NCBI GenBank assembly: GCA_963718665.1 | Contig: OY970359.1 | Span: 256,001 to 320,000, forward strand | From: an uncultured Phycisphaerales bacterium | GTDB taxonomy: Bacteria; Planctomycetota; Phycisphaerae; Sedimentisphaerales; Anaerobacaceae | Direction of reading: 5' to 3' | DNA length: 64,000 bases | Shown here: positions 16,109 through 56,701 of the stretch, piece after piece | Position numbering within the stretch: the first letter of the stretch is position 1 | Layout of the letters: each line of letters opens with the position of its first letter | Position numbers and translations under genes: made by a program | The notes under the pieces: generated by a model | The model's input: only the letters and a program-made list of their open reading frames with translations | Databases searched by the model: none | Told to the model about the DNA's origin: nothing

Positions 16109-16196
<88 letters not shown>

Positions 16197-16204
16197 ACAA
16201 TGAT

Positions 16205-16725
16205 TTATGATTTCTGACTTTCGATTTCTGATTTTGGCCCTTCGGGCCTGCGCTTCTTAAAGAACTCTGTCAGCAACGCGCCGCACTCGTCGGTCAATAT
16301 GCCGTTTGTAACCTCGACACGGTGATTCAGGCGTTTATCCTGAACGATATTATACAAGCTTTTCACCGCGCCCGTCTTCGGGTCGTCGCAACCATATACT
16401 AATCGGTCGATACGGGCCAACACCAAAGCCCCGGCGCACATACAGCACGGCTCCAAGGTAACATAAATCGTGCAATCATTCAAATGCCAGTTTTCGAGAG
16501 CCGCTGCCGCCTGGGTAAGCGCGATTATTTCCGCGTGGGCAGTCGGGTCCTGCAATTGTTCCCGCTGGTTGTATGCCTTTGCGATTATGGTATTGTTATG
16601 AATAATCACCGCCCCAATAGGCACATCGCCATTCTCCTCGGCGATTTGCACTGCGCTATAGCAATACGCATATATTGCTCGTCAATAGCCGGCTGTATGG
16701 TGGGATTAGAAGCTGATTCAATCAT
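16205..16725 (-). CDS. tadA: tRNA adenosine(34) deaminase; apparent frameshift near 16651
   Basis: HAE and TLEPCCMC motifs; the conserved N-terminal helix DEQYMRIAI is in another frame starting at ATG 16725. Confidence 0.9.
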
Positions 16726-16825
16726 AAATCAAAAGTTGAACAGTAGAACAGTTGACCGCCCCCGCTGCTGCCTTGTGACAGCAAGACGCGGGGGCTCCAT
16801 TTTTCCCGACCATAGTCGGGAAAAA

Positions 16826-16898
16826 TACCCCCAAGGGGAGTCGAACCCCTGTCTCCAGGATGAGAACCTGATATCCTAGGCCACTGGACGATGGGGGC
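16826..16898 (-). tRNA. tRNA-Glu(CTC)
   Basis: GCCCCCATCGTCCAGTGG...TTCTCAT anticodon loop...GGTTCGACTCCCCTTGGGGGTA; upstream TTGACC-N16-TATACT promoter. Confidence 0.96.
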
Positions 16899-17011
16899 AA
16901 TACGGATTTACGATTGCCGATTGCCGATTTATGATTTTCGCCCGCCTTCATTATCATTTCGGCGGGTAAAATTTAGGATTTTAGTATAGCGGAAATCGAC
17001 CGGCGGTCAAT

Positions 17012-17044
17012 AAAAAAACAGTCGGCAGGAATGCTGCCGACTGT
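17012..17044 (-). terminator. Intrinsic terminator
   Basis: ACAGTCGGCA...TGCCGACTGT followed by a T run on the minus strand. Confidence 0.75.
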
Positions 17045-17073
17045 CATAAACCTTAGTGCGACTGAATCAAGCG

Positions 17074-17379
17074 TCAATTTACCGAGCCGACAAGATGCTC
17101 CTTGCTGATAAATTGCGGCCCGCTCGTATTCTGTGTCCGGTTTTGCTCATCGAGCTTCTTTTCAAGCTCCTTGATTCGTTTGGACAATTCTACACGCTGC
17201 CTCGTTCCGCTTGCGGAACTGAAAAGTGCAATACCGACGCAAGTAATGAAAAGCAGAGATGCCCAGTCGTGTGCGGGACTCCAGCCCGGCTGCGGGTAAA
17301 CAATAAACGGCAGCGCGGCTACCAGAAAACCAATGCCTATCAGGTATTCCACAACCCATATTGGATTATTCTTATTCAT
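17074..17379 (-). CDS. Small hypothetical membrane protein (2 TM plus coiled coil)
   Basis: RBS AAGGAG, two hydrophobic segments, downstream terminator. Confidence 0.7.
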   Translation of the reverse strand: MNKNNPIWVVEYLIGIGFLVAALPFIVYPQPGWSPAHDWASLLFITCVGIALFSSASGTRQRVELSKRIKELEKKLDEQNRTQNTSGPQFISKEHLVGSVN

Positions 17380-17583
17380 ATTCCGACTCCTTACCTTATA
17401 ACATTGTATTAAGTTCTCATATTGGGCATGTAAAGAACGCCTGTCTCTATCTTGATTCGGCGTTCTATAGGGCTTACGTTAAAAGGGCTTCGCTTTTAGC
17501 ACTATAAAAACTGGCTTATAAACATAGCGATAACACTTATCGGACGTAGATATCGTTCAAGGAATGAACCCTGTGAAAGGCAA

Positions 17584-17657
17584 TAGCGGCGGTCGGATTC
17601 GAACCGACGACCCTGGGCTTATGAATCCCATGCTCTAACCAACTGAGCTACACCGCC
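17584..17657 (-). tRNA. tRNA-Met(CAT), probably elongator type
   Basis: GGCGGTGTAGCTCAGTTGG...TTCATAA...GGTTCGAATCC; paired 1:72 position (Ile2 not excluded). Confidence 0.92.
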
Positions 17658-21757: not shown

Positions 21758-21866
21758 CTTTTAGCCCCGTAGGGGCTGAAAGTTACCCCCGCGTCTCGTT
21801 TTGAGAATCAAAACGGCGGGAGCCATCAACCTGAACGCCGAACGCTGTACGCTGAACGCTGTCTAA

Positions 21867-22601
21867 TTAACCTGCCAATCCTCGCAAACAACGCCCGCGA
21901 TTCGCCTGCCCCTGCGTTTCGTCTTGCACCCCCCTGCTTCTCTTTGTGAAGCCCCTCAACTTGTCTCGCAAGAAGCAGAGGGACAAGCAAAGCGTGGGGG
22001 CATAAGAAGCAAAACGGCCGGGGTCTTTTTCCGGAAAGTTCAACCTCGCAAACTCGCCATAATACTTTTTCGCCGCCTTATCATAAGCGTGTGCCGCTGC
22101 AATCTCGCTGTCGAATCTCCCTAACCAGATGCTTTTTTTGTTATACACAATTATGCTTGTCCATTTGCCTGTCTGCTTGCAAAAGCATACTCCCATATAT
22201 CGCGAGGAAGTATTTTTTCTCTTTCGTCTGTTTTGCATATTTTCCGCTCGCGTCGCGAAGCGCAGATTGCTCTTTCGATTATCCAATGAATCGCAATTCC
22301 TGTGGTCAACTAATCTTTCGTCGTTAGCGCCCATTATCTCTCTGTGCATAGACAGCATTATTGTCTTATACGGCTCGACAAATTTTAATCTGACCGCGTA
22401 TAAGTTATGTCCGCCGCCGTGCACAACCCATTTGAAATGTTTGAGCCGGTAATAATCCGGCTGCTCTAAAATAGTCCATTTGCCTTCGCCTAAGTAAATC
22501 CTGCGGTATGTGTAGCCGTAACGGAACAGGCGATAGGCAAGCAGTGGACAGGTGAAAATAAAGTCGAGCCAATTTTGAACTTTGATTGTAATGGTTGACA
22601 T
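21867..22601 (-). CDS. HNH endonuclease + AP2 domain protein (copy 1)
   Basis: MHREIM...VDHRNCDSLDNRKSNLR...N (HNH); SRYMGV...KW...WLGRFDSEIAAAHAYDKAAKKYYGEFARLNF (AP2); RBS GAGGAG. Confidence 0.9.
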   Translation of the reverse strand: MSTITIKVQNWLDFIFTCPLLAYRLFRYGYTYRRIYLGEGKWTILEQPDYYRLKHFKWVVHGGGHNLYAVRLKFVEPYKTIMLSMHREIMGANDERLVDHRNCDSLDNRKSNLRFATRAENMQNRRKRKNTSSRYMGVCFCKQTGKWTSIIVYNKKSIWLGRFDSEIAAAHAYDKAAKKYYGEFARLNFPEKDPGRFASYAPTLCLSLCFLRDKLRGFTKRSRGVQDETQGQANRGRCLRGLAG

Positions 22602-22609
22602 AATACTCT

Positions 22610-23017
22610 CCTCGGAGCGCAGCGCAGATCCCCGAGAACCCGCCCCATTGGTTTCGTAACAGGGGACCCACAAGAAATCCCAAATTTCAAATCACAAACA
22701 ACAAAACACAAAACGGAAATTGATTTGATTTACCTTGCGCACAAGGCGCGAAATCTGGGATTTCTATCCCCCCTACTGCCCTATCTTGGGCTACTACCCA
22801 CCTCCGGTGGATTGGACATTGGAAATTGGTTATTGGACATTCCAATCCGTCCTCCGACCTCGGTCATCCGTCCTCAGGACCACATGGTCCCTCTATATAT
22901 AGGGTGAAATTGCGATGGTTTTAAGGACTTAGGAAACTTTATTTTTCCGCCCAAAATTTGTAAGTTCTTATGGGAAAAGGAATAAAAAAAATTTCAAAAA
23001 TTGCCGGATTTTTTTGG
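22610..23017 (-). repeat. Conserved non-coding leader of the HNH-AP2 element (copy 1)
   Basis: Blocks 22610-22686 and 22847-23017 align with 45470-45587 and 45748-45918. Confidence 0.85.
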
Positions 23018-23229
23018 GGCCTCGCGAGTGAGCGTTTGATTGAATTGCCTAAATTAACATCGTTTCGCTGTAGGGAAAAGGTCTATTTTTAAGCTGAAAA
23101 CATAGTATATGCTTGTATGTGGTAGTATGCAACGGGTTTGGGGAACACAGATTTTTTAGATTAGCAACTTATTTTCATGGATTAGAAATAATCAATGTAG
23201 CTATCTTGCGGCTGACGTTATTCTGCCAA

Positions 23230-24451
23230 TCAATCCTCTAATTTTTTTATCCACCCTTCAAGCTTTTTTACATCAGAAGCCATTCCTACCTTTTTGTACA
23301 GTTCCAGGGCCTTCAACCAGTATTGGCGTACCTTGGTCTTGTCTCCTCGCTTAAGGTACACGTTTCCGAGATTGCCATAACTATTTGCCATTCCCTCAGA
23401 CCGACCAAGCCGCTCGTTAATCTCCAGCGATTTGCAGTGCATCTCTTCGGCCTTGTCAATATCGCCGCGTATCTGGTACACGATTCCGAGGTTTGACAAA
23501 ATAACCGCAGTACTTTTTTCGGAATTGATTTCCTTCGCAAGTTCCAATGCTTCACCAAGCACAGTCTCTGCGTCATTAAGCCTGTTCGTTCCAATCAAAC
23601 TGTAAACATATGTTTGCATTGCCTGCAATTGAGCCTTTTCGCTCCCGCTTTGTTTCGCTTCTTTGAAGAGACGTTCCGCCCAGTAAACCCATTCCTCGTA
23701 GTTTGTTTTTCCTCCTAAATACGCTCTTATTACTAGAAGCTCCAACCTACTTTTTGCATCTATATCATTAAGGGTTTCTCCTCCGGCAAATTCCTGATTC
23801 CAAAATCGAATCGCATCTTCGAGTTTGTTTTGACCCACAAGCGATTCAAACAGGGGTATCATATAATCTCGAATAAGTACAGACTTCTCTACCCCTCCTT
23901 GCTTAGCCCTACTTAATTGATCTCTTAGAACATCAATATCCGCGCCTGTACCTAGCGCCGGAAATCTTTTTGGAGATACTCTTCATCTCATCAGCAAGCA
24001 CCGTTTCCTGAAATCGAAATAGCATCATCCACTGGAGCAAATCATCGGCGCTGCGGAAAAGCTCGCGTTCATTCTCTGCGTTCAGCAGTAATACAGTACG
24101 TATCTTCCCCGCAGCAAGGCTTTCGCGTTGCAGATTCAGTCTTTCCCAAAAATCCTGGAGATTCTGTTCTGATTCATTTTCCTTTATCGAATCTCTCCGG
24201 ACAATAAGAACAACCTCTCCCATGCTCAGCGACCTTGAAAGCTCTCCGATTACGGGAGGATCAGCTTCTGCCTGTGCAATATGAATCGGTATCTGTGTTA
24301 AACCTCCTTGAATTCGGTTGATAATCGCATCCCCCACCAAAGGTCCCGGAACTATCACTCCGCACACTCGCCCCTCGGACTGCCTAAGAAAAGAAAGCAA
24401 CCGGCCAAGCTCATCCTCGTCCAGCTTAATTGCCGTAGTATTCAAATTCAT
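23230..24451 (-). CDS. TPR protein with uncharacterised N-terminal domain; split into two ORFs by an apparent frameshift at about 23970
   Basis: ORF 23933..24451 (LNLQRE...ADDLLQW) overlaps the open TPR frame (SNLGIVYQIRGD, YGNLGNVY), which extends well upstream of ATG 23862. Confidence 0.65.
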
Positions 24452-25790
24452 CGTTCTTTTAGATGCTCAGCCACAAGCGGATGAACTCTGTGCCATCCCT
24501 CACCATTATATTCAAGCACAGCCTGCGCCTGCAATAGAAGCAGATTGATTGGATCCGATTCGACTTTACGCGGACTCTTTTCGATATCTTTCAATCTTGC
24601 CATCATCTTCTCAACTGTTATATCGCATTTTTCATAATCTTTTGGTAACCCTACATCCCCTATCAGTCTTACCAGTTTTGCTTTAACCCGATTAAGACCG
24701 TAACGTACATCTTCTTTAATTATACATTTCTTACTACGTCCCTTTTTAATCGCCTCCTGTGCTGTCATTGCTGCGATAGCTATCGCCTCAAAAAGATGTC
24801 GTAACACCCCCCCGTCTTTTCTATTGCCAGTTCAATCGCATCATCATCTATGAGTGTCTTAATATCCATTCGTCGATCAAGGATTTGCCGAATAACTTTT
24901 CGTCCGATCTCGCATTTTTCACCATTCTTCTCTACGACCTTTATCATCGGTATCGTAACTTTCTTGAACAAACTATCCAAAATAGCCGAAGCAGGTGTAC
25001 ACAATAGCCATATTGGTGCCGTAAAAATCATTTTGCAGGAAATATCCGCCAAAGGCGCCGGATTTCTCAGAAAAATAGTATCTGTCGCCTCGATCGAAAG
25101 CTTGTCGAGATCCTCTATTATCAAAAGCATTTCGCGCTTGCTTTTTTCCTTTACGGCCAGTCTTGCCTCCTTCACAAGAATGTTCACTTGATTCACCAGC
25201 TCTGAAAGCCGATGATTTTCCCTTGTCACACACCGATGTAGAGTATTCGATCCTGTCTTGATGTCCGATTTCAGATATGCGCCTATTCCGATTAGCTTGC
25301 CAAGAATACTTTGACTTGTATCAGCGTGTGCTCCTCCCTGTAAAACCATTTCAAGTTGCTGTTCCTTGATTTCAAATGCCTCACTGAACCATTTGTATAT
25401 GGATTCAAGCGTTTTGTCATTCAGTTTAATGTTCAAATTCTTAACTTGGCGTGTTACCGCTTCAACAATCAATACCAGCAGTGCTTCCAGAGAGGCCTGA
25501 CTTAATTGCCCCTCGTCCATCATGGAAAACGATATTACGGTATAGGTAGCTATCTGTTCATCTTGAAATTTAGCAATTTCCGTTGATTTCCCAGAACCGG
25601 GATGTCCCGTTACCAGAACTTTAACGTTATTCTCTGTTTGCAGATAGTTTGCTATCTCTGTTCGTCGCGAAAGGTTGGGGTCACGGGCCTCAGCCGTTTC
25701 CTCAAATAATTCATCCAATTGACTCAGATGCAATGGTTTAAAATCCAATACTCTGAGAACATCTTCCAGTTTTTTTGCACGACTACACAT
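24448..25790 (-). CDS. P-loop (AAA/KAP-like) ATPase; frameshift in a G7 run at 24807-24813
   Basis: Walker A GHPGSGKST, Walker B LLIIEDLDK; adding one G joins KTGG to VLRHLFEAI (ORF 24448..24807). Confidence 0.8.
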
Positions 25791-30367: not shown

Positions 30368-30615
30368 TTTGTAGCAGCGTTCAGCGGACAGCGTGGAGCG
30401 GACAGTCAACAGTCGTTAGTCGTCAGTATGTCGTAATTTGGATGCCGGCTGACAAAAATCGAAATAAGATTAATACCCGCCCCAGTTAACAAGTAACAAC
30501 AAATTTAGCGCAGAGAACCCTACTTCGCCAGTTGGGCTACGCAGGGCAGGCAACTGAAACCACGGAGAACTATTTTTTCAGACAAGGATTTTTAACAAGT
30601 TGAACAGGGAGCTTT

Positions 30616-31503
30616 TTAAGCTCTGAATTTTCTGATTATCGCCGCACCAAGGCCGAGAAACAATAACGTGCATGGCTCGGGAATCTGAATTGCGATACAC
30701 GCCGGATAACTCAAACCCGAAGCGAAGAGAGACATGTTTCCACTCGAATCGAATTTTTCAATCGTCCCGCTGTACCAACCGGTTGCATAAAGATTACCAC
30801 TGCTGTCGAAGACAAGACCTATAGGATTGTTAAAGTGAGAAGCAAAGGTGGTTCCGTTTCCACTGGAATCGAATTTCTCAATCGTCCCACCGTAGAAACT
30901 GGCTGCATATAGATTACCGATGCTGTCGAAAGCAAGACCCATGGGGCAGTTCAAGCCCGAAGCAAAAATGGTTTCATTTCCGCTGGTATCAAATTTTTCA
31001 ATCGTCCCGCTGCTTTGATTGGCCGCGTAAAGGTAGCCGCTACTGTCAAACGCAAGACCAAAAGGGAGTTCTAAGCCCGTGGCGAAAATGGTTCCATTTC
31101 CACTGGTATCAAATTTTTCAATCGTCCCAGTGTTTTGACTGGCCACGTAGAGATAGCCGCTGCTATCGAAGACAAGACATGTAGGTTCTGTCAAGTCCGA
31201 TACGAAGATGGTTCCGTTTCCGCTCGAATCGAATTTCTCAACCGTCCCATTGTTAAAATTAGTTGTGTAGAGATCGCCGCTGCTGTCGAAGGCAAGCCCC
31301 GTAGGGCCGTGCAATCCAGATGCGAAGGTGGTTCTGGTTCCGCTCGAATCGAATTTATAAATATTACCGGGCCCATAGAAATAGAGGAATTCAGGGTTAT
31401 AGCTTGACACATAAATATTATCGGCGAACGCGAGGGTGCTTGGCAGCAGGACCAGCACGGTTACGGCCAATATCACTGTATTTATTTTTGGGTGCGTTTT
31501 CAT
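30616..31503 (-). CDS. NHL-repeat beta-propeller PEP-CTERM protein
   Basis: About six 41-aa repeats (FASGL..P.GLAFDSSG.LY....GTIEKFD); ends IPEPCTLLFLGLGAAIIRK. Confidence 0.9.
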   Translation of the reverse strand: MKTHPKINTVILAVTVLVLLPSTLAFADNIYVSSYNPEFLYFYGPGNIYKFDSSGTRTTFASGLHGPTGLAFDSSGDLYTTNFNNGTVEKFDSSGNGTIFVSDLTEPTCLVFDSSGYLYVASQNTGTIEKFDTSGNGTIFATGLELPFGLAFDSSGYLYAANQSSGTIEKFDTSGNETIFASGLNCPMGLAFDSIGNLYAASFYGGTIEKFDSSGNGTTFASHFNNPIGLVFDSSGNLYATGWYSGTIEKFDSSGNMSLFASGLSYPACIAIQIPEPCTLLFLGLGAAIIRKFRA

Positions 31504-44724: not shown

Positions 44725-44860
44725 ACCCGGTTCTCCATAGCCCATTTCGATTATTTCACCGTCTGCGAACATCCTAACAACCTACCGGATTAAGTCAACC
44801 ACCGCATTACATTTGTAGAGAACACGGAATTTTTAGACACGGATTTCTGTACGCTGAACG

Positions 44861-45460
44861 CTATACGCTGTCCGCTGATTCTGCAAAATTCAATCTCGCA
44901 AACTCCCCATGGTATTTCTTCGCTGCCTCATCATACGCCTTCGCCGCTTCGATTTGGGTCTCGAAACTCCCTAAGTAAATTCTTTTCCCCTGATACCTGA
45001 TTCTCGCCCCCCACTTTTTGATTTCTTTTATAAAATAGAGCCCGATATATTTCGATGCCGTCTTTCCTCTGATTTTTGGCCTGTTATACGTATTCTGTGC
45101 AGGCGTCGCAAATCGCAGATTCGCCCTCCTGTTATCGAGAGAATCCCCGTTTTCGTGGTCAACAAGGGTCCCTTTGGGCGCATCGAGAATTTCCCTGTGC
45201 AAAAACGATGTCTTGACCCGCCCTGCAATGGTTTGTTTGAGGACCCGGACAGCATAGAAACGCTCGTTTTCGCCTGCTGCTGACCACTTCAGATGGCCGA
45301 ATTTATAATAATCCGCCGGCTCAACTATCGTCCACTCCCCTTCGCCCAAATATATCCGCCGATATGTATAGCCGTAACGGAGCAGGCGAAAGGCGAGCAA
45401 TGGACAGGTGAAAATAAAATCGAGCCAAACAGGTATCGTTATTGTTAATTGTGCAGACAT
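44861..45460 (-). CDS. HNH endonuclease + AP2 domain protein (copy 2)
   Basis: LHREIL...VDHENGDSLDNRRANLR...N; SKYIG...YLGSFETQIEAAKAYDEAAKKYHGEFARLNF; RBS GAGGAGG. Confidence 0.9.
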   Translation of the reverse strand: MSAQLTITIPVWLDFIFTCPLLAFRLLRYGYTYRRIYLGEGEWTIVEPADYYKFGHLKWSAAGENERFYAVRVLKQTIAGRVKTSFLHREILDAPKGTLVDHENGDSLDNRRANLRFATPAQNTYNRPKIRGKTASKYIGLYFIKEIKKWGARIRYQGKRIYLGSFETQIEAAKAYDEAAKKYHGEFARLNFAESADSV

Positions 45461-45469
45461 ACTTATTCC

Positions 45470-45918
45470 TCCTCGGAGCGTAGCGCAGATCCCCGCCTGC
45501 CCTCGACTGCTGCTCACTCGGCTTTGCAATCGGGGGAGAACCCGCCCCATTGGTTCCGCAACAGGGGACCCATAAAGAAATTCCAAATCCCACTTTTTAA
45601 ATTTACAATCCGAAATTGGAACTTCTGTTCCTGATGCCTTGCCCTCCCGGGGCGAAATGCTTGCTTGCCTCGGCGTAGCTCCTTGAGCGAAGCCGGGCGC
45701 TCTGCGCTACTACTTTTTCGGAAGACAGACGACAGAAGACAGATTAGCCGTCCTCCGACCTCAGTCATCCGTCCTCAGAACCCAAAGGTTCTCCTATATA
45801 TAAGGTGAAATTTTGGGTGTTTTAAGGAGTTACGAAACATTAATTTTCTGCCCGAAATTGGTAACTCCTTGCAAGACAAGGAATAAAAAAAATTTCAAAA
45901 ATCGTAAAATTTTTTTGG
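45470..45918 (-). repeat. Conserved non-coding leader of the HNH-AP2 element (copy 2)
   Basis: Aligns with 22610-23017; carries a 41-nt insertion at 45495-45535. Confidence 0.85.
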
Positions 45919-46241
45919 CAATATAGGCAATATGTCAATAACAGTTACACAGTATTATTTCCCGGCCTGCCCTGAGCAAGCGTAGCAAGTCGAAGGGATT
46001 TTTTTAGGGCACTTGCGAGACAAACGTTTTAAACAAACATATCGCTTACCTATTTTAACATTTCCCCGTCTCTGGCAGACAGATTTCCACTGCTCACCTG
46101 TTCGACTTTTCTAATATCTCGCGCAGCGTGACGCTGTTTTTAATGTGCCCTTAACGCTGGTTTTTACGCGGAAAATTTGGTTTTGAGTGAACAGTTTTCA
46201 ACTGCTCAACTATCTACTTTCCCGGGAACCTCAAAGAAACG

Positions 46242-51450: not shown

Positions 51451-54039
51451 TTAGTTACCCCATACGTTGCCGAAAACCGCGAAATCCGTAAAGTTAACGG
51501 TTCCGTCGGTATCGAAATCGCCCGGGACAGGTGTCTCTGAACCGGTTATGAGCCAGTTATTGCACATCACTTTAACATCGCCAAGGTCGATATAGCCATC
51601 ACAGTCAAGGTCGTAAATGTTGTCCGCTGTGTAGTTTTGCCCGGCCTGGTCAACCAGCACACCGACATAACTCCCGTTGTCTGGTGTAAACGTAAAGTGC
51701 TTTTTGGCCGGCGTCACCGTACCTGTCCAGGCGTAACTGACCCAGACCTCATAAAAACCATTTGCATCGGTTATGGCCTGCCCGCCACCGTTGTCCGCGC
51801 TAACCAGCACGTTCTCTATGGGCACGTTGCATTCGTTAATGATGTAACCGGTGATTTTGAACGTGAGCAACATGCCGGCATAGCCCTGGCCGACAGTATA
51901 ATCCACATTGACATCCTCATAACTTGTGCTGTTCGGTTCGAAGGCATAGGCATACTTCATAGGTGTTACTTTCCCCGACCAGTTGTAATCAACCAAGACC
52001 TCATAGTAACCGCTTGTATCTGTCAGCCAGGAACCGCCGCCGTATTTGCTCGTCCAGGGTCCGCCGCCGTTTTCGGCAGAAACGCTGACATTGCTTATCG
52101 GCGTGGAATTGCCGGAATCAAGCACATAGCCGGCAATCTTAAAGGTCATAAGTGTGGCCGTGTAATTCACATCGTTGTAATCCTGCATAACATTGCTATA
52201 TGTACTGCTGTTCGACTCAAAGACGTATCCTTCCTTCTCAGGAGCGATGACGCCCGACCAGCCATAGCCGACCGACAATTCGTAGTAGCCGTTTGCATCC
52301 GTTATAGTGTTAGTATCACCTGCTGACATCAGCACATCTTTGACCGGCGTGTTACCATCAATCTCAACTACGTAACCGGAAATCGAGAAGATAATCCTGC
52401 TGAACGTCACGGCAACGGTATGAGTGGCCGTGATATTGCTTAATGTGTAGGTCGTACCGCCTGTCTGGACATCAGCACCATCAACCTGCCACTTGTCAAC
52501 CGTGTAACCAGTCGTTGGTGTGGCGGTAAACAACTGGCTGCCATTGTAATTGACTACCGCGCTTGTCGGGGTAATCGAGCCGTTGGCGTCTGCTGAAGCA
52601 GTAATCGTGTATGTGAGTATCTTGAAACTCACAGCAACGGTATGAGTAGCTGTGATTGAGCTTAATGTGTAGGTTGTGCCGCCGGTTTGAACTGGGCTAC
52701 CATCAACCGTCCACTTGTCAACTGTGTAACCGGTTGTCGGTGTAGCGGTAAACAACTGGCTGCCATTGTAATTGACTACCGCGCTTGTCGGGGTAATCGA
52801 GCCGTTGCGCACTGCTGAAGCAGTAATCGTGTATGTGAGTATCTTGAAACTCACAGCAACGGTATGAGTAGCTGTGATTGAGCTTAATGTGTAGGTTGTG
52901 CCGCCTGTCTGGGCATCAGCGCCATCAACCTGCCACTTGTCAACCGTGTAACCAGTCGTTGGTGTGGCGGTAAACAACTGGCTGCCATTGTAATTGACTA
53001 CCGCGCTTGTCGGGGTAATCGAGCCATTGGCGCCTGCTGTGCCGGTAATGCTAAAAGTCTGAATACCGAATGTAGCGGTAACCGACTTATTTTTATTCAT
53101 TGTTATTGTTGTTGGATTAGAAGCACCGTTAACATCTCCGCTCCATCCGATGAATGAGCAGCCCGCAGCAGGATTGGCCGTCAAAGTAACGACCGTTCCA
53201 GGGGTATATGAGGCATGGTCAGGATTCCTGGTAACTGAGCCACTACCCACTGTGCTGATAGTTAATGTATACGTTGAAGGCGCTGCGGCCTTAACCACAT
53301 AGCCAATAAGCGACTGGTTAGCCAAGGTCTGGGTTACAGTCGGTGTTTCATTGACACCTGCCGCATTTTTGTGCCCATCCATACCATCGTAACCAGTTAC
53401 GGAAAGATCAACGTCTTTAGTCCAGCCGGTCGTAGTCAGGTAGGTGCCCGTGGCACTGCTGGCGGCATTTTCAATTACCATATCACCGTTGTTAGTTGCA
53501 AGTGGAGTTGTTGCTATTGAATAAACATCTGTTAAGCCATTCCTGGCAGTAGCACCGAGCAGAGTTGTTTGATTGACATTCTGAAGGAATACACTGGTGT
53601 ATGTAACATTGGAAGGTGCGTTGGTCCAAGTGGGAGTAAAGGTGGTGGTTGTCGCAGCGGTAATGTTTGCATCATTGAGGATAAATGCCACAACGTACGC
53701 CCGACTGCAACCGGAACCAATAATTTTGTCGGTTATCTTCGTCATCGAGCGTCCACCATAGGTTACACCGGTCAGATTTGACGCACTACTGCTCTTAGCA
53801 TGTGCGACGAAGAGCAGCGCGCGGTTGCGCACTGTTTTCTTTGCGTGGGTCGTACCTGTTGTCCACGAGCCCAGGATGCTGACAGCGGATGTATAATCCT
53901 CGCCCTCCTGAACTCCGCCGCCGGATTGCTGCTGGGTGGCGAGCCATCCGCATTCCTGCAGGAACTTGGCGCGATAGTCATAGGCATTTGCAGATACCGC
54001 AAAACCCATTACGGAACATAAGACCAAAATGCCACTCAA
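51451..54039 (-). CDS. Secreted repeat protein (InlB B-repeat-like and carboxypeptidase-regulatory-like repeats, dockerin-like tail)
   Basis: Three 74-aa tandem repeats, three TDxxGxYE modules, DLDCDGYIDLGD...GDFDTDGTVNFTDFA; start uncertain. Confidence 0.8.
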   Translation of the reverse strand: MSGILVLCSVMGFAVSANAYDYRAKFLQECGWLATQQQSGGGVQEGEDYTSAVSILGSWTTGTTHAKKTVRNRALLFVAHAKSSSASNLTGVTYGGRSMTKITDKIIGSGCSRAYVVAFILNDANITAATTTTFTPTWTNAPSNVTYTSVFLQNVNQTTLLGATARNGLTDVYSIATTPLATNNGDMVIENAASSATGTYLTTTGWTKDVDLSVTGYDGMDGHKNAAGVNETPTVTQTLANQSLIGYVVKAAAPSTYTLTISTVGSGSVTRNPDHASYTPGTVVTLTANPAAGCSFIGWSGDVNGASNPTTITMNKNKSVTATFGIQTFSITGTAGANGSITPTSAVVNYNGSQLFTATPTTGYTVDKWQVDGADAQTGGTTYTLSSITATHTVAVSFKILTYTITASAVRNGSITPTSAVVNYNGSQLFTATPTTGYTVDKWTVDGSPVQTGGTTYTLSSITATHTVAVSFKILTYTITASADANGSITPTSAVVNYNGSQLFTATPTTGYTVDKWQVDGADVQTGGTTYTLSNITATHTVAVTFSRIIFSISGYVVEIDGNTPVKDVLMSAGDTNTITDANGYYELSVGYGWSGVIAPEKEGYVFESNSSTYSNVMQDYNDVNYTATLMTFKIAGYVLDSGNSTPISNVSVSAENGGGPWTSKYGGGSWLTDTSGYYEVLVDYNWSGKVTPMKYAYAFEPNSTSYEDVNVDYTVGQGYAGMLLTFKITGYIINECNVPIENVLVSADNGGGQAITDANGFYEVWVSYAWTGTVTPAKKHFTFTPDNGSYVGVLVDQAGQNYTADNIYDLDCDGYIDLGDVKVMCNNWLITGSETPVPGDFDTDGTVNFTDFAVFGNVWGN
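52405..53055 (-). repeat. Three near-identical 222-bp intragenic tandem repeats
   Basis: GCAACGGTATGAGT recurs at 52412, 52634 and 52856. Confidence 0.92.
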
Positions 54040-56617: not shown

Positions 56618-56701
56618 GCCGAAGTGGCGGAACTGGCAGACGCGCAGGATTCAAAATCCTGTCCTGGCAACAGGGTGTGGGTTCAAGTCCCTCCTTCGGC
56701 A
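56618..56701 (+). tRNA. tRNA-Leu(CAA)
   Basis: GCCGAAGTGGCGGAACTGGCAGACGCG, CAGGATTCAAAATCCTG, GGTTCAAGTCCC. Confidence 0.97.

Follow-up and report, generated by a model that had tools for sequence, protein, structure and literature searches.

Nuclease genes and their upstream blocks

The window, by which we mean the whole 64,000-nt stretch analysed here, belongs to a 2.61-Mb single-contig genome (G000) and carries two related blocks on the minus strand, copy A at 22847-23017 and copy B at 45748-45918, each upstream of an HNH_3-AP2 gene. Over 171 nt the two blocks share 81% identity even though dS between the two downstream genes is 2.26 and their synonymous sites are saturated, indicating that conservation of the block is far above chance. 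The block is a genuine DNA module under strong conservation. The initial annotation had placed the hairpins GGACC-acat-GGTCC at 22877-22890 and GAACC-caaa-GGTTC at 45778-45791, the arms of an inverted repeat at 22922/22961 in copy A and 45824/45861 in copy B, and a palindrome common to both copies; we recovered all of these, the palindrome CTATATATA at 22893 and 45794, together with the A/T runs. The features are as follows.

21867..22601, minus: copy A HNH-AP2 nuclease gene, 244 aa (Pfam HNH_3 and AP2; PHROGs HNH endonuclease)
22602..22875, minus: copy A leader, a mosaic of short repeat and hairpin modules, plus a ribosome-binding site
22876..22891, minus: copy A stem-loop (the hairpin first annotated), on the sense strand directly after TATATAT; likely a 5' mRNA hairpin
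22896..22901, minus: copy A TATATA, putative -10, within the 10-bp palindrome 22893-22902, with a 17-nt spacer from TTAnnn
22919..22931, minus: copy A dyad half-site TAAGTCCTT, the first arm of the annotated repeat, overlapping the putative -35 hexamer 22919-22924
22961..22985, no strand: copy A full 25-bp dyad (9+7+9), putatively IHF-type, centred about 84 bp upstream of the predicted start
22984..23015, no strand: copy A A/T tracts (A7...T7), likely bending or UP-like DNA; not in the RNAalifold consensus
23045..23059, minus: copy A conserved upstream 15-mer, candidate activator site or second (extended -10) promoter
23230..25790, minus: variable cargo upstream of block A in the ispD-murC interval (a TPR protein, two unknown ORFs and an AAA ATPase)
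44861..45460, minus: copy B HNH-AP2 nuclease gene, 199 aa (Pfam HNH_3 and AP2; PHROGs HNH endonuclease)
45777..45792, minus: copy B stem-loop
45797..45802, minus: copy B TATATA, putative -10
45820..45832, minus: copy B dyad half-site over the putative -35
45862..45886, no strand: copy B full 25-bp dyad, putatively IHF-type
46046..46060, minus: copy B conserved upstream 15-mer

G000 contains 27 HNH-AP2 genes, ten with an upstream block of the class found in the window (C1), ten with a second class (C2) and seven with other upstream regions, most of which have an ordinary TTGAC...TANAAT promoter. HNH-AP2 matches number 3-32 in 17 of the 18 other genomes of the genus and 18-23 in G032, G033 and G034, and there are none in G013 and G031. 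The exact C1 core is almost restricted to this genus, occurring in five of the eight genus genomes drawn and as single weak matches in four of 143 other genomes of the order; among 53 metagenome C1 cores, 43 lie before a nuclease gene, five do not and the remaining five are too short for a call. All 118 proteins compared carry the HNH histidine (14 of the 132 in the set, short or from outside the genus, were left out), and dN/dS is 0.09-0.38 in 15 pairs; the predicted HNH active site is intact and the nuclease under purifying selection. Phage HNH-AP2 proteins are at most 43% identical among the 12 matches listed, and all 861 matches are under 60%. The C1 core has no exact match in IMG/VR, blastn of the C1 block against annotated phages gave no match, and the literature accessible to us yielded no work on this system, including on HNH-AP2 homing endonucleases in Planctomycetes. 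Of the nuclease copies at G000:2061686, 1563644 and 502314, two carry frameshifts, and in one a transposase-like ORF replaces the promoter region.

RNA structure, the dyad and promoter anatomy

We interrogated C1 copies for the compensatory C-G to G-C swap that had been proposed from the two inverted repeats. From 55 distinct C1 cores, 54 were aligned and 53 scored, after two copies without a partner arm were dropped. The swap position is C·C in 33 of the 53 copies, C-G in 19 and G-C solely in copy B, and a partly overlapping set of 52 metagenome copies gives C·C 26, C-G 22, G-C 1 and other 3. A neighbouring position is unpaired in 36/53 copies and, over the 54 aligned copies, 452 of 500 shuffles pair the long helix as well or better, showing that the swap is not covariation. 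Across the aligned C1 copies, none of the four named helices covaries above shuffles, the dyad shows no covariation as a stem, and the RNAalifold consensus of 54 copies contains 0 pairs. Rfam finds only tRNAs in the window and nine related loci (in the window, four tRNA genes, at 16110-17657 on the minus and 56618-56701 on the plus strand). Copy A folds no better than its shuffles (z -0.3 and -1.2), and the letters that are best conserved are A/T steps at fixed spacing. Against this stand the folding of copy B, with z about -2 on both strands, and the sense-strand stem-loop described next. Taken together, we regard a structured non-coding RNA partnering the nuclease as very unlikely. The two-copy "compensation" is a degenerate position in a protein site, and its removal clears away a false ncRNA candidate.

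The small hairpin fared better, being kept copy by copy. It has z below -1 in 80 of 102 distinct C1 and C2 versions, versus 8 of 55 upstream controls; its own 5' arm outpairs swapped arms in 81 of the 102 versions, non-consensus arms outdo the consensus arm in 47 of 63, and internal mismatches are G·T in 32 cases versus A·C in two, the versions being related to each other so that these counts are not independent (three of 115 rows, one truncated, one a reverse-strand duplicate and one spurious, were dropped). Fixed-column covariation tests of the hairpin are not significant, because its register shifts between subtypes. The per-copy folding, own-arm preference and G·T bias together indicate a stem-loop on the coding strand, and this short stem-loop after TATATAT is the sole part of the block that behaves as a single-strand structure. 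It depends on the AGAGG arm, as mean z rises from -2.2 to -0.65 without the first 5 nt. At four loci (L165, L169, L185 and L223) a unit of TATATAT/TAGGAT, AGAGG and hairpin is tandemly repeated about 110-120 bp downstream with the -35 part missing.

Each arm of the annotated inverted repeat belongs to its own copy of a dyad of 25 bp, with the pattern TAAS-NNN-TT-N7-AA-NNN-STTA. In copy A, the 22961 arm forms the promoter-proximal half of the full dyad (22961-22985), while the 22922 arm is a lone half-site. G000 has 50 strand hits to the dyad versus 1.0 expected, and 0 when the central spacing is set to 6 or 8 nt. A looser pattern gives 36 sites, of which 34 are intergenic and 17 lie at a distance from nuclease genes. 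The TT, AA and TT steps, which the search pattern did not select, are kept in 52-53 of 53 rows, whereas that pattern itself accounts in part for the lack of variation in the half-site and TATATA columns. The fixed spacing and free centre argue for a protein site. The AP2 protein had been suggested to bind here, which we could not uphold: the dyad is enriched in five genomes without an HNH-AP2 match (16, 24, 18, 10 and 16 sites, versus 1, 3, 1, 1 and 1 at 9-nt spacing), and two genomes that have 0 nuclease copies still contain C1 blocks, indicating that the dyad is not an AP2 operator. Of the original proposal that selection acts on structure or dyad symmetry, the second half holds, since selection acts on the dyad symmetry of DNA sites; the conserved RNA fold falls away, with the exception of the short stem-loop.

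The steps of the dyad resemble those of sites for IHF, whose E. coli consensus is WATCARnnnnTTR with kinks 9 bp apart, as given in the accessible part of 10.1101/382655. Both have an AA-N4-TTR arm and neighbouring A-tracts, and the TT/AA steps of the dyad also lie 9 bp apart; unlike the E. coli sites described there, the dyad is two-fold symmetric with a free 7-bp centre, and E. coli IHF is an alpha/beta pair whereas G000 has one IHF-beta-like gene (10.1101/382655). This gene, at G000:1298902-1299168, is the only HU/IHF gene (PF00216) of the genome, and its best hit is IHF-beta at 73 bits (NCBIfam cut-off 115). We take the R-x-E-x-R motif of its product to be IHF-type and the TT and AA of the dyad to be the steps that IHF kinks. 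The E. coli WATCAA form is not enriched in G000 (123 hits versus 169.5 expected). An IHF-like homodimer would explain the symmetry of the dyad, whose sequence would suit symmetric binding by the one IHF-like protein of G000. If so, Planctomycetes would offer a symmetric IHF site for a single-subunit IHF.

The elements of the block have a characteristic arrangement, from the conserved 15-mer farthest upstream through A/T tracts and the full 25-bp dyad to the half-site and then, after 17 bp, TATATA and the stem-loop. The spacer from TTAnnn in the half-site to TATATA is 17 nt in 51 of 55 copies, with 15-19 allowed by the pattern. The 15-mer is present in 47 of 96 copies in forward orientation, 0/96 in reverse and 3/96 when shuffled. 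Its distance to the -10 is 156-161 bp in 21 copies and 166-169 bp in 14, never 162-165 bp. These distances are one helical turn apart and suggest helical phasing, although they mainly represent two distance classes of related copies. The 15-mer motif may be an extended -10 element with its own promoter or the site of a global regulator; it also occurs at G000:1299288, 19 nt before a cold-shock-like gene that itself directly follows the IHF-like gene, and at about 20 other intergenic sites. A sigma70 consensus scan of the block found no promoter, TATATA lacking the -7 T, and with the usual sigma70 geometry transcription would begin inside the AGAGG arm of the stem-loop. The missing -7 T and a stem-loop that uses bases sigma70 would leave untranscribed disfavour a simple sigma70 reading. 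The block as a whole is nonetheless predicted with good confidence to be a promoter.

Relation to the capsid operon and portability of the block

A C2 block at G000:1659633-1660065 stands directly before portal, scaffold and major-capsid genes. Since a C1 profile search matches the region before the portal gene (E 7e-10), C1 and C2 are homologous. They have the tracts, the dyad and the ATAG-hairpin end in common; C2 carries a GC-rich palindrome between the putative -35 and -10, and C1 has the second half-site there instead. All 13 portal loci found have a C2 block, and C1 was never found at the capsid operon among these 13. The head and terminase genes are single-copy, conserved and at separate loci: portal and capsid genes occur in 13 of 24 genomes (80-96% identity) and TerL in 23 of 24 (72-94%; found with PF17289, missed by PF03237 and PF04466). 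We did not find portal or capsid genes in the other 11, including G002, G032 and G033, which are 91-97% complete and hold 18-27 nuclease copies. Neither a C1 nor a C2 block was found near terL, and we identified no genes for a tail. At the head of the terminase region stands a sigma70-r4/Q-like HTH gene (weak hits), which we found in 19 of the 24 genomes. In G000 this region (L220, G000:975253-984635, minus strand) is split by host and R-M genes; it contains the sigma70-r4/Q-like HTH gene at G000:984189-984635, an ABC-type ATPase, a radical-SAM protein, a methylase, a ParB-like protein, TerS, a probable rpiB and TerL.

This arrangement recalls gene transfer agents (GTAs). The Caulobacter crescentus promoter PgtaT, as described in the portion of PMC11150451 at hand, has a GafY site, an IHF element and a GC-rich GafZ palindrome between -35 and -10. 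C1 is like PgtaT in layout only, with an upstream site, an IHF-type element between that site and the core, and a degenerate -35/-10, whereas C2 also has the GC-rich spacer palindrome and the position before head genes, and the sigma70-r4/Q-like HTH gene of the terminase region is a further likeness to the Caulobacter GTA (PMC11150451). C1 lacks two defining features of PgtaT, since a half-site replaces the spacer palindrome and nuclease rather than particle genes follow it; its IHF site is symmetric, there are about 20 module copies per genome, and the host is a planctomycete (PMC11150451). With the palindrome replaced by a second IHF half-site, C1 would not need a Q/GafZ-like factor. The GTA of Bartonella uses antitermination by the Q21-like BrrG and, like the genes here, combines a domesticated phage head operon, a Q-type control region and a multi-locus organisation; dispersed promoter copies, as seen here, do not appear for it in the part of 10.1101/2024.11.20.624540 that was accessible.

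The block is portable. The orthologue of the copy B gene is 96% identical in G006, where it has C1, and 90% identical in G017, where it has C2. More generally, paralogues about 55-60% identical carry near-identical blocks while orthologues differ in block class (a quick-search protein tree, whose own class labels came from a cruder pattern, served solely to spot orthologue pairs), and one locus can hold nuclease paralogues that are only 50-65% identical. Chimeric C1/C2 forms exist (L040 and L160), and the interchange of C1 and C2 before orthologous genes together with these chimeras suggests that their output is equivalent. The block also occurs without the nuclease: a complete C1 with leader stands before a phage-type primase/helicase gene in G032 (L197/L262, G032:C3:316383-317983), and G013 and G031, which have neither an HNH-AP2 nor a capsid match, contain at least 17 C1 modules whose flank is nuclease-free. 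The block has likely been swapped between genes, with the short leader repeats as a putative route of exchange. We rejected the primase/helicase gene as the native target of C1, which is found there only in G032; the 90% identical orthologue in G033 has no C1, and G008, with 282 nt upstream, was not judged.

On balance, we lean towards reading C1 as a portable, IHF-bent promoter related to that of the capsid region, which likely activates the HNH-AP2 nuclease during production of GTA-like particles. Homology of the block to the DNA upstream of the portal and capsid genes makes it likely that the nuclease is switched on when particles are made. The competing view that C1 descends from the capsid region but is now uncoupled, an IHF-dependent host promoter spread by gene conversion between paralogues and perhaps used in stress or stationary phase with another sigma factor, is unlikely. 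In its favour, C1 is without the C2 palindrome, persists in genomes where no capsid gene was found and never heads the capsid operon, and the dyad and upstream motif lie at many ordinary intergenic sites. The interchange of the two classes before orthologous genes, with the chimeras, and the retention of TerL in nearly every genome speak against it.

Cargo, homing and particle production

DNA on the two sides of C1 blocks differs. Upstream, GC is 0.42 and 15 of 65 cases have a G000 homologue; downstream, GC is 0.50 and 35 of 45 do. By these measures, the upstream side is mostly foreign DNA and the downstream side core. The ispD-murC interval is empty in G001 and G018 (90 and 102 bp), so that both occupied and empty alleles of one locus are present, and it holds different cargo in each of the seven genomes where both ends were seen, while 11 of the 20 examined were not spanned. 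Because the cargo differs in every genome, the ends of an element cannot be fixed, and the 25 longest of 47 inverted repeats include neither terminal inverted repeats nor any that link the block to the 3' side of the gene. Just behind ispD, at L042, L043 and L045, the final ~15 bases of that gene are found again downstream, flanking short palindromic inserts, as though insertion at this site had happened repeatedly.

These empty and filled alleles could mean that a mobile element ends in the block, and the T4 intron endonucleases, which bind operators over their promoters (PMC2988022, as far as accessible), offer a precedent for an operator of HNH-AP2 itself, with autorepression as in I-TevI. 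We consider either quite improbable, given that the dyad and C1 occur in nuclease-free genomes, that divergent paralogues share near-identical blocks while orthologues differ in class, and, for an element end, that no matching inverted repeat was found among those inspected.

The ispD-murC pattern is consistent, by analogy, with the intronless homing and co-conversion of flanks known from the free-standing T4 seg/mob endonucleases, as they are treated in the accessible part of PMC2988022. The free-standing homing endonucleases of phages (seg/mob of T4, PMC2988022; HNH-AP2 proteins such as those in Bacillus phages 268TH002 and Slash) resemble the present system in their intact HNH and AP2 nuclease, presence/absence at orthologous sites, late-type promoters and 5' RNA hairpins. 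The system here differs from the free-standing phage enzymes described there in having about 20-30 chromosomal paralogues per genome, each with an exchangeable promoter module, and a hairpin that does not cover the RBS (PMC2988022).

The nuclease-free C1 modules of G013 and G031 bear on another alternative. Those without an ORF (L161, L162, L164-L169, L191, L208, L223, L235 and L236) mostly open with a C1 block, behind which come a hairpin, then a boxA-like word and a repeat-rich body of several hundred bases that includes pairs of 9-10-bp direct repeats, one more dyad and phased A/T tracts; one such module has 50 matches in G013. The boxA-like word lies downstream in 12 of 13 full-length ORF-less modules; G000:663000-669500 contains no rRNA, leaving no rRNA leader for comparison there. 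An association of ORF-less modules with nuclease loci was unconvincing, as three of 14 with a flank mapped to G000 fall within 5 kb of a copy versus ~10% by chance. Three different C1 blocks in G013 (L158, L159 and L163) are interrupted right after TATATAT by an identical sequence at contig ends, likely an IS targeting that point. Transposase-like ORFs, presumably of IS1595 type, occur in L164 and L170.

IHF acts at phage packaging sites, and the block might, instead or in addition, act in cis as a site of DNA packaging or run-off replication, at which IHF-bent DNA, meltable TATATAT and the hairpin would start terminase packaging or local amplification, with nucleases and cargo hitchhiking. 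This we hold to be improbable. The 17 C1 modules whose retrieved flanks lack a nuclease, their non-coding repeat bodies, the 50 matches to one module in G013 and the presence of foreign DNA on one side only would suit such a site; the fixed 17-bp spacing, the succession of leader, RBS and ATG behind the block and the downstream boxA-like word fit a promoter. As to the initial suggestion of a single-stranded DNA end or origin, none of the 25 longest inverted repeats (of 47) runs from the block to the far end of the gene, and a packaging or origin role is kept as the improbable alternative just described.

Returning to the promoter of GTA-linked nucleases, we envisage that an IHF-like homodimer would bind the symmetric dyad and loop an upstream activator onto RNA polymerase, with TATATA serving as the -10 element and the stem-loop perhaps protecting or pausing the transcript. 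The nuclease would then cut alleles without its gene and spread by intronless homing, for which particle-delivered DNA could be the template; the foreign cargo on the upstream side of the block would then be accounted for. A broader proposal is speculative and rather unlikely to hold in full: a multi-locus planctomycete GTA whose control module is now mobile, with dozens of copies at core/cargo junctions, firing homing nucleases during particle production in most species, which would amount to a prokaryotic gene drive running on the GTA of its host, and, in nuclease-free ones, heading non-coding modules that possibly bias which DNA is packaged. If the promoter reading is right, selfish nucleases tap the gene-transfer programme of their host through copied promoters. 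This would bear on who profits from GTAs and why they persist, and would add a candidate GTA outside the well-studied groups.

The window has further repeats. A heptamer-type intergenic repeat lies at 21831-21861, 30375-30412 and 44847-44878, with 22 matches in the genome, three of them near nuclease genes. Coding tandem repeats occupy 30713-31369 and 52367-53049, with periods of 120 nt (at least four copies) and 222 nt (at least three copies). Segments of ~70 nt are duplicated in neighbouring genes at 9613-9685/10495-10567 and 31733-31802/33344-33413, the first pair presumably corresponding to PEP-CTERM-type C-termini, which it resembles.
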